Source: Shigella phage sb2
DNA length: 64,000 nt
Reading direction: 5' to 3' (one strand)
Sequence record: PQ666540
Part shown: one piece after another, positions 9,226 to 9,541 of the stretch
How positions within the stretch are numbered: the first letter of the stretch is position 1
Layout: each line of letters starts with the position of its first letter
The notes under the pieces: model-generated
Database searches by the model: none
The model's input: only the letters and a program-made list of their open reading frames with translations
What the model was told of the DNA's origin: nothing
Program-made: the position numbers and the translations under genes

Positions 9226-9277
9226 AAGCCTTGCGGCAACCTTGTCGGGGTTCCACCTGCTAAGGCAAGTGTTTGTA

Positions 9278-9368
9278 CGAAACGCCGGGATTCGAACCCG
9301 GTTATTAAGCAGTTGACGCTACTCAATATTTTTAAAAGGCCATATCTCGACCATATCCGAACGTTCCG
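9278..9368 (-). ncRNA. tRNA-like structured RNA (possible stable-RNA species C/D analog); coordinates approximate
   Basis: Canonical T-arm CCGGG-TTCGAAT-CCCGG plus a 7-bp acceptor-like helix, but no normal D or anticodon arms. Confidence 0.3.
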
Positions 9369-9541
9369 TCAAAAACGCTACTCGGCTTACGGCAAAGATA
9401 TTTCCTCGAATCGATAATTCGGTGCGCCGTTTCTGCTGTGATGTAAGAGGGCATCAACAAATCATAAAGATTTATTAACACAATTCCTTACCCAGGGAAC
9501 ATCAGTCCGACGACTTACCGGTAGCGACCCGGTTTCTTGTT

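Follow-up and report, generated by a model that had tools for sequence, protein, structure and literature searches.

The distal end of a T4-type tRNA operon encodes rnaD and rnaC, of which rnaC folds as a non-decoding, tRNA-like cloverleaf

The 64,000-nucleotide (nt) stretch of DNA from Shigella phage sb2 analyzed here (sequence record PQ666540; called the window in the following) comes from a T4-type phage (Tequatrovirus), and the minus strand of its positions 9226..9541 forms the 3' end of a transfer RNA (tRNA) operon. Judged by homology, this interval is an already known and named locus that holds rnaD and rnaC of T4, two genes that were named in the 1970s. The best explanation of the interval as a whole, to which we assign a probability of about 0.85, is that the distal end of the operon encodes rnaD and rnaC, and that rnaC is a non-decoding tRNA-like cloverleaf which may, speculatively, serve as a tRNA mimic. 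The locus is an ordinary one for a T4-like genome, and finding it here is a re-identification. What the analysis adds is a structure of rnaC that is backed by covariation, namely a cloverleaf with an insertion in the D loop, together with a proposed loop-loop contact and a possible elbow contact. This structural model makes the old question of function testable.

Identity and Layout of the Locus

A BLASTN search with positions 9180..9560 as the query matched 805 of 50,697 phage records. At least 80% of the query was covered in 679 of them, and the identity was 90-99% in almost all. The matched phages are Escherichia, Shigella, Yersinia, and similar Tequatrovirus. Where RNA genes have been annotated (RB10, T2L, T4 'wild', Aplg8, Kha5h, RB3, and RB6), the aligned stretch is 96-100% identical to that of the window and carries the annotations rnaD (species II RNA) and then rnaC (species I RNA), right after tRNA-Arg. 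The gene boundaries used here (Table 1) are the non-coding RNA coordinates of RB10, carried over by means of a four-way alignment (A1) of the window, T4, RB10, and T2L. The ends of rnaC are uncertain by 1-2 nt, and in the T2L annotation the gene is 140 nt long. The rnaC sequence is 98-100% identical to that of hundreds of sequenced T4-like phages, and it matches the T4 copy at 137 of 139 positions, leaving 2 differences. Over 9270..9420 many Tequatrovirus records are 100% identical to the window, and 490 phage records are at least 99% identical.

Sequence and position both place the two genes in the T4 families. rnaC is recognized by alignment as well as by a covariance model (see below), and it is found at the end of the tRNA operon, on the same strand and upstream of the operon terminator. 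rnaD is homologous to its T4 counterpart and lies between tRNA-Arg and rnaC. The operon has ten contiguous tRNA genes on the minus strand at 10373..9542, identified using ARAGORN and Rfam (Gln, Leu, Gly, Pro, Ser, Thr, Met(CAU), Tyr, Asn, and Arg), and the interval starts directly 3' of the last one, tRNA-Arg (9542..9617, minus; ARAGORN). This upstream context, with ten tRNAs and without segB, is of the RB3/RB10 type and not of the T4 type.

An earlier, sequence-only reading of the window had described the interval as an unassigned structured RNA region, had suggested that it is the counterpart of T4 rnaC/rnaD, and had proposed an Rfam search and an alignment to T4 as checks. The label 'unassigned' has to be given up, as the locus is known and named, while the proposed kinship is confirmed by the alignment to the annotated records of T4, RB10, and T2L. 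The distance of about 315 nt that had been estimated between tRNA-Arg and the terminator agrees with the ARAGORN coordinates and with the terminator hairpin and its U-tract (9225..9202).

Secondary Structure of rnaC

Homologues of rnaC were drawn from an annotated phage collection and from IMG/VR, giving 25 distinct sequences from at least 10 genera. These include Tequatrovirus, Gaprivervirus (VR7), Karamvirus, Kanagawavirus, Moonvirus, Tegunavirus, Winklervirus, Gelderlandvirus, and Marfavirus, and the set also takes in Edwardsiella PEi20-like phages and Citrobacter phage Ursula. The predicted secondary structure of rnaC, as demonstrated by covariation among these sequences, is a cloverleaf with an insertion in the D loop; rnaC is a genuine but non-decoding cloverleaf.

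The minimum free energy (MFE) of the 139-nt rnaC is -50.2 kcal/mol (z = -4.55), and none of 200 shuffled sequences folds as well. In the MFE fold the partner of the 3' strand is the 5' end of the same RNA, and single-sequence MFE folds of the copies from Moon, Pet-CM3-4, and fHe-Yen9-01, which represent three other genera, have an identical architecture. For eight sequences RNAalifold predicts 46 pairs, 19 of which display compensatory change. In A4, a MAFFT alignment of 18 sequences that was fitted to no model, 93.4% of the cells are paired and 22 of the 53 pairs are compensatory; this was reached by none of 500 shuffles. The corresponding values for A9, the alignment of all 25 distinct sequences, are 91.8% paired (against 37-46% in slid controls) and 33 of 53 pairs compensatory, but since A9 was fitted to a covariance model its pair counts are biased towards that model, a bias that A4 is free from and that has to be held against the A9 figures.

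The acceptor stem comprises 7 base pairs (bp), which in order are C-G, G-C, A-U, U.U, U.U, C-G, and G-C. The third pair is A-U in eight and G-C in 17 of the 25 sequences; the Tequatrovirus-type copies are those with A-U. In the Tegunavirus phages U-A and C-G stand in place of the two conserved U.U mismatches, and six homologues have an optional eighth 'pair', A1-U138. The tail encoded past the acceptor stem is U-A-C-A-A and not NCCA, and the annotated 139-nt RNA retains only U138 and A139 of it. A tail of the form U-(A/C/U)-C-A-A is found in 24 of 25 homologues, while that of Ursula is UACAG.

In the D-arm analogue a short stem encloses a loop that consists of A12, an irregular hairpin insert of 60 nt (9401..9342), and then G74 and G75 (9341 and 9340). 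According to RNAalifold and the pair counts, compensatory change is found in 15 of 20 plus 5 of 7 pairs of this region. An A-rich linker leads on to P3, the analogue of the anticodon arm, in which 8 of the 10 pairs are compensatory and the loop is invariant apart from two covarying variants. A variable region of a single nucleotide separates P3 from the T arm, and the 5-bp helix of the T arm is directly adjacent to the 7-bp acceptor helix, as in a coaxial minihelix.

The perfect T arm pointed out in the sequence-only reading is present exactly where it was placed (Table 1). The statement that the element has no normal D or anticodon arms was half right: the arms are not normal, but enlarged analogues of both exist. 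Similarly, the view that the interval contains a tRNA mimic gains support from the covariation among the rnaC homologues, while the proposed tRNA-like element of about 91 nt does not stand, the tRNA-like domain being the whole 139-nt rnaC.

Proposed Tertiary Contacts in rnaC

The tip of the inserted hairpin may kiss the anticodon-like loop of P3 and thereby close rnaC. Tip and loop are UUGACG/CGUCAA in 22 sequences, UUGAUG/CAUCAA in two (Tegunavirus), and UUGGCG/CGCCAA in two (Marfavirus). The complementarity is accordingly held in 26 of 26 sequences, with two independent double changes at different positions. By simple arithmetic, the chance of a given 6-nt Watson-Crick match is about 1 in 4096 per register.

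The sequence comparison is also suggestive of an elbow contact between the GG of the D loop and the T loop, as in tRNA. The nucleotides G74, G75, U120, and C121 (T loop) are G, G, U, and C in 21 sequences and C, G, G, and C in four, the latter from Kanagawavirus-type and Winklervirus phages. This covariation fits the parallel 18:55 / 19:56 register of the tRNA elbow. Two other pairings were tried and rejected: an antiparallel register for the same contact fails in the variant sequences, and a match between GCAU of the variant T loop and AUGC of the D-arm insert (P2) is absent in Virsaitis27.

The 9-mer GAGUAGCGU occurs twice in rnaC, at 9375..9383 in the inserted hairpin and at 9316..9324 in the anticodon-arm analogue (both minus). 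By eye, its GUAGCG core is complementary to CGCUAC (9521..9526, minus) in the loop region of the rnaD 5' hairpin. The repeat could be an internal duplication, or it could reflect a contact between rnaC and rnaD.

Table 1. Features of the distal end of the tRNA operon; positions are those of the window.
Feature	Position	Strand	Basis or remarks
rnaD (species 2 RNA), 121 nt	9540..9420	minus	Annotation transfer from RB10; T2L annotates the same element
rnaD 5' hairpin, ACCGG-GUCGCUA-CCGGU	9533..9517	minus	Closing A-U is G-C in RB10
rnaD long hairpin	9514..9422	minus	GUCGUCG (9514..9508) with CGGCG(C)AC (9429..9422)
Spacer between rnaD and rnaC, AAUUA, 5 nt	9419..9415	minus	Alignment
rnaC (species 1 RNA), 139 nt	9414..9276	minus	Annotation transfer from RB10, T4, and T2L
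Acceptor stem, 5' strand, CGAUUCG (nt 2-8)	9413..9407	minus	Pairs with 9284..9278
D-arm analogue	9406..9337	minus	3-bp stem AGG/CCU, 9406..9404 with 9339..9337
Tip of inserted hairpin, UUGACG; proposed kissing partner of the P3 loop	9372..9367	minus	Perfect 6-nt complement of 9318..9313
ACGGAACG	9369..9362	minus	Overlaps the UGAC tip loop (A46, C47); 3' strand of the apical stem of the inserted hairpin
P3, anticodon-arm analogue	9328..9303	minus	10-bp stem, 6-nt loop CGUCAA (9318..9313)
T arm, CCGGG-UUCGAAU-CCCGG	9301..9285	minus	2 of 5 pairs covary
Acceptor stem, 3' strand, CGUUUCG (nt 131-137)	9284..9278	minus	Pairs with 9413..9407
Trailer of the operon transcript	9275..9226	minus	Alignment
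Trailer hairpin, CACUUGC-CUUA-GCAGGUG	9271..9254	minus	Stem invariant in three genera
Intrinsic terminator	9225..9197	minus	10-bp stem, GAAA loop, U-tract; one compensatory change, C-G to G-C, in Dhakavirus

Distribution and Genomic Context of the rnaC Family

The covariance model R1, built from 18 rnaC homologues, finds a single copy in the window (164.9 bits, E = 1.4e-39). True rnaC copies score 92-166 bits, compared to 18-22 bits for genuine tRNAs, and the model cleanly recognizes the rnaC family, which has no entry in Rfam 15. The proposed Rfam search, run at gathering thresholds and with E up to 10, gave no family above its gathering threshold in the interval, only sub-threshold matches to tRNA-Sec, isrK, and similar noise; the alignment to T4, the other check, identified rnaD and rnaC.

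When IMG/VR was scanned with the pattern TCGAGGA-N{70,98}-AGCRTCAACT, 120 stretches were obtained, nearly all of which are chance matches according to the covariance model. A refined pattern scan of IMG/VR gave 10 loci, and a pattern scan of metagenomes gave three loci, one of which is real. The scan of bacterial genome contigs gave five chance matches in unrelated bacteria; none of them passed R1, and no bacterial copy with this pattern was found.

The rnaC gene lies within the tRNA array in Karamvirus, Moonvirus, Gelderlandvirus, Kanagawavirus, Winklervirus, Tegunavirus, and phage Ursula. It fills a slot whose upstream neighbor, tRNA-Trp or tRNA-Met, has its CCA about 5 nt away, and/or whose downstream neighbor, tRNA-Gly or tRNA-Trp, starts 2-8 nt further on, and in these other genera the spacer between the CCA end of the tRNA and rnaC is AAUUA, AAUAA, or AACAA. 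In VR7 (L148, Gaprivervirus) and in Kosakonia phage 305 there is no tRNA within 300-500 nt of rnaC. In the Dhakavirus phages VR5 (L010) and AnYang (L011) rnaD is joined directly to the trailer and terminator and rnaC is precisely absent, and in Gaprivervirus TH44 (L012) an open reading frame (ORF) of about 500 nt takes its place. The precise absence in Dhakavirus and the replacement in TH44 mean that rnaC behaves as a discrete presence/absence cassette, and it appears as a mobile cassette in tRNA 'slots' across many genera.

rnaD, the Trailer, and Neighboring Sequences

rnaD is a separate hairpin RNA that is not tRNA-like, with conserved ends and a tip that is free to vary. It begins 2 nt past the CCA of tRNA-Arg and ends ...GGCGCACCG; the 3' end is ...GCACCG here and in T2L, compared to ...GCACCA in T4 and RB10. 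Its fold has z = -2.11, and 8 of 200 shuffled sequences fold as well. RNAalifold predicts 25 pairs for seven sequences, with compensatory change in five. Both hairpins are supported by compensatory changes. The long hairpin has invariant closing stems and, in Dhakavirus, A-U in place of a U-A pair; its hypervariable tip has unrelated sequences in the window, T2L, and AnYang. The RNA has no T arm and no tRNA-like fold. It is present in Tequatrovirus, Dhakavirus, and Gaprivervirus. A terminator-like match on the plus strand at 9517..9533 mirrors the rnaD 5' hairpin.

In Tequatrovirus, Dhakavirus, and Gaprivervirus alike, the trailer hairpin and the GGAACCCCGACAAGG that follows are invariant apart from one or two loop bases, including in phages that lack rnaC or have an ORF in its place. 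Covariation speaks neither for nor against this hairpin, but its conservation exceeds what a mere spacer would require, and it could be an element for processing or for 3' protection. The terminator hairpin GACCGAAAGGUUGGGGCUUUUUAG (9197..9225) is repeated almost exactly about 555 nt downstream, past the next ORF, as GACCAAAAGGUUGGGGCUUUUUAG (8640..8670, minus), and this repeat explains the two-piece BLAST matches that span about 900 nt. Past the terminator the sequence of the window departs from those of T4, RB10, and T2L.

Two of the upstream tRNA genes deserve mention. The tRNA-Met (CAU) gene (9801..9875, minus) occupies the position of the T4 'tRNA-Ile'. The two agree in the first 12 nt and in the anticodon loop CUCAUAA and differ elsewhere; the gene of the window may encode an AUA-reading isoleucine tRNA rather than a methionine tRNA. 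The tRNA-Tyr gene (9701..9787, minus) scores 30.2 bits against an Rfam gathering threshold of 29, compared to 60-74 bits for the other nine.

Transcription and Probable Processing

It has been reported that in T4 a primary transcript covering the whole cluster gives rise to the tRNAs and to the species I and II RNAs, and that it ends after the gene for species I (PMC2330249). On the minus strand within 9226..9541 no sigma-70-like site was found, and the T4 late-promoter motif TATAAATA is found on this strand only at 10719..10712 and 9195..9188, both outside the interval. The lack of an internal promoter motif agrees with the view that there is one transcript (PMC2330249). The second of the two late-promoter motifs lies immediately after the first terminator. 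RNAC has been detected by northern blot in T4 infection, and both RNAC and RNAD have been classed as late RNAs (PMC9697503). Homology together with the literature thus shows that rnaD and rnaC belong to a single transcription unit. From promoters upstream of tRNA-Gln the transcript extends across the ten tRNAs, rnaD, rnaC, and the trailer hairpin as far as the terminator.

RNase P recognizes the minihelix that an acceptor stem makes with the T arm on which it is stacked. In rnaC a 7-bp acceptor stem and a 5-bp T arm are stacked in this manner, and the 5' end of rnaC is therefore most likely produced by RNase P. Going by this architecture and by the position of the gene inside tRNA arrays, rnaC would be freed from the transcript in the same way as a tRNA, with RNase P cutting on the 5' side of the acceptor stem. 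The same cut would also free rnaD with a 5-nt tail, and 3' exonucleases would then trim the 3' ends of both RNAs to the structure. The sealed, compact fold may account for the stability of rnaC.

Possible Functions of rnaC

The function of rnaC and rnaD was called unknown in papers from 2010, 2022, and 2025 (PMC3014915, PMC9697503, PMC12685909), and the literature that was found on functional work with the two genes holds only statements to this effect. A convergent single-nucleotide polymorphism (SNP) in rnaD has been described in all lines of a T4-like phage that had evolved on ECOR34 (PMC12685909, 2025), and this hints at a host-dependent role for the locus.

As a speculation, the most probable role of rnaC, going by its shape, is that of a very stable tRNA mimic, which would show only the acceptor/T/elbow face and would then bind or titrate a factor that recognizes the shape of tRNA, either a processing or modification enzyme or a host defence nuclease that targets tRNA. 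In its full form this idea says that rnaC is a 'closed' tRNA mimic in at least 10 genera of T4-like phages, with the anticodon-like loop permanently sealed by the kiss, and that it serves as a decoy or sponge for a host factor. This we regard as improbable. If true, the 50-year-old species 1 RNA would be an RNA-based counter-defence or a regulator.

Several observations weigh against the mimic and against the contacts and processing steps proposed for it. The kissing contact amounts to two compensatory events in 4 of 26 sequences, and the geometry demands that the insert of about 23 bp reaches a P3 loop that is only 10-13 bp from the junction. The elbow contact is one co-occurring pair of changes in two genera, and this may be a single event that was spread by recombination. 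Moreover, the G18-psi55 pair of a real tRNA is not of the Watson-Crick type, so a C-G replacement is not strictly isosteric. The canonical T-loop sequence has been lost in three Kanagawavirus-type copies (L004, L075, and L139) and in Virsaitis27 (L009), where the loop reads UGCAUGC or UGCAUC instead of UUCGAAU, the stem is retained, and the partner GG has become CG. With four homologues lacking the canonical T loop, recognition of this loop is not universally required. As for processing, the annotation starts the RNA at U9414, one nucleotide ahead of the first acceptor pair, which makes the cleavage register uncertain, and bacterial RNase P works better with CCA, while the tail of rnaC is not CCA. 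Finally, the Dhakavirus phages keep rnaD and the trailer yet have no rnaC, and T4 phages with deletions in the tRNA region grow on laboratory hosts.

Alternative Explanations

Rather than acting in trans, rnaC and rnaD could be cis elements, that is, structured 3' modules that shield the upstream tRNAs against 3' exonucleases or order their processing and afterwards remain as stable by-products. The layout in Tequatrovirus would suit such a role, with rnaD and rnaC placed at the 3' end of the tRNA transcript and followed by a conserved hairpin and the terminator, as would the nearly constant physical linkage of rnaC to tRNAs and the roughly 50 years that have passed without a function being found (PMC3014915, PMC9697503, PMC12685909). 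However, rnaC lies in the middle of the array and not at its end in other genera, the copies of VR7 and Kosakonia phage 305 have no tRNA within 300-500 nt, and the conservation of loop sequences and tertiary contacts goes well past anything that a protective hairpin would call for. The convergent rnaD SNP on ECOR34 also suggests a host-dependent phenotype (PMC12685909). A purely cis-acting role is therefore judged unlikely, though it survives better than the remaining alternatives.

The sequence-only reading had built its tRNA-like element on a different acceptor helix. In the window ACGGAACG (9369..9362) can indeed pair with CGUUUCGU (9284..9277), giving 8 bp including one G.U, but the partner strand is the wrong one. 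An element of about 91 nt closed by this helix (9277..9369) might be an internal entry site for RNase P or an alternative conformer of rnaC. The helix has 8 bp in the window and in all Tequatrovirus copies, the Rfam tRNA-Sec model aligns with this very pairing, although its 16.6 bits (E = 1.5) stay below the gathering score of 47, and the equivalent 96 nt are labelled 'tRNA-OTHER', a call made by a tRNA finder, in the GenBank record of phage G9062. Against this, not one compensatory change is found among the homologues, and in 11 of 18 sequences an A x C mismatch breaks the centre pair. Both Tegunavirus copies have three mismatches, and the helix is also broken in Melville and L136. Forcing it raises the free energy of the fold from -50.2 to -36.9 kcal/mol, and this cost of 13.3 kcal/mol arises because the covarying apical stem of the inserted hairpin is destroyed. 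Cleavage by RNase P at this helix would in addition give a species of about 94 nt, compared to the annotated 139-140 nt. We thus consider the shorter element very improbable and retain the 139-nt cloverleaf.

Another alternative is that rnaC is a decaying tRNA pseudogene with a large insertion, evolving neutrally; a degenerate tRNA pseudogene was one of the outcomes that the sequence-only reading had regarded as fatal to its own proposal. In favor of this, rnaC has tRNA-like acceptor and T arms, yet it falls below the threshold of every tRNA detector. Neutral decay is, however, at odds with 33 compensatory pairs out of 53 and invariant loops in at least 10 genera, with 490 records that are at least 99% identical, and with the expression of a discrete stable RNA (PMC9697503). 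By the covariation the pseudogene explanation is effectively refuted.

That the interval encodes small proteins is extremely improbable, even though ORFs of 49-50 amino acids overlap it and many GenBank records have 'hypothetical protein' coding sequences there, since the ORFs start with TTG or GTG, no frame is open across the homologues, and the substitutions compensate within pairs and are not codon-periodic. The earlier judgement that the interval has no plausible ORF was correct: it holds five ORFs of 24-58 amino acids with TTG or GTG starts, none in a frame that stays open across 25 homologues.

The GenBank records often carry one to three 'hypothetical protein' coding sequences over rnaD and rnaC, sometimes with ribosome-binding sites (for instance in H8, H10, H11, H14, H44, and H142, and at 373..468 in L142). 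These calls, as well as 'tRNA-OTHER', are almost certainly mis-annotations of non-coding RNAs, and the present analysis corrects this recurrent error.

Comparison with Known RNAs

With respect to ordinary tRNAs, the general tRNA model RF00005 gives no match in 9226..9541, neither at the gathering threshold nor with E up to 10, and ARAGORN finds no tRNA there. P3 is a 10-bp stem with a 6-nt loop, compared to the 5-bp stem and 7-nt loop with a readable anticodon in tRNA. The pairing suggested between the D-loop GG and the T loop does follow the parallel register seen in tRNA.

Among unusual tRNAs, those of class II and for selenocysteine give the best resemblance in Rfam, although a sub-threshold one (16.6 against 47 bits); the shared points are a long extra arm next to the T arm and an optional eighth acceptor 'pair' (A1-U138 in six homologues). 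They differ in that the anticodon-arm analogue of rnaC has a 6-nt loop on a 10-bp stem, and the match relies on the unsupported internal helix.

The tRNA-like domain of transfer-messenger RNA (tmRNA, SsrA) shares with rnaC that the 5' and 3' ends pair as an acceptor on a T arm and that there is a large insertion unlike anything in tRNA. Both are stable RNAs, and like tmRNA rnaC would be of the type that RNase P accepts as a substrate. In contrast to tmRNA, rnaC has no G3.U70, the identity pair for alanine (its 3:70 pair is A-U or G-C), no encoded CCA, and no tag ORF, and it retains analogues of the D stem and the anticodon arm. ARAGORN finds no tmRNA in the interval, and the Rfam model tmRNA_permuted reaches 10.1 bits, compared to the 47 that would be needed.

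In the bacterial Y-RNA-like YrlA, a non-coding RNA proposed to act by mimicry, a module that imitates the acceptor, T, and D parts of a tRNA is joined to a long, protein-binding extra stem. It resembles rnaC in this concept of a tRNA module with extra structure, but the topology differs, as the insert of rnaC sits in the D loop, and the Rfam models for YrlA and similar Y RNAs give no match in the interval with E up to 10.

The closest counterparts remain those of T4 itself. The rnaD of the window has the same position as that of T4, between tRNA-Arg and rnaC, and is homologous to it in the 5' 50 nt and the 3' 30 nt, with a few substitutions and with insertions or deletions of 1-2 nt in the variable tip. 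T4 rnaC is the same gene as the one described here, of the same length and with the same place as the last gene of the operon before the terminator, and nothing material differs between the two.

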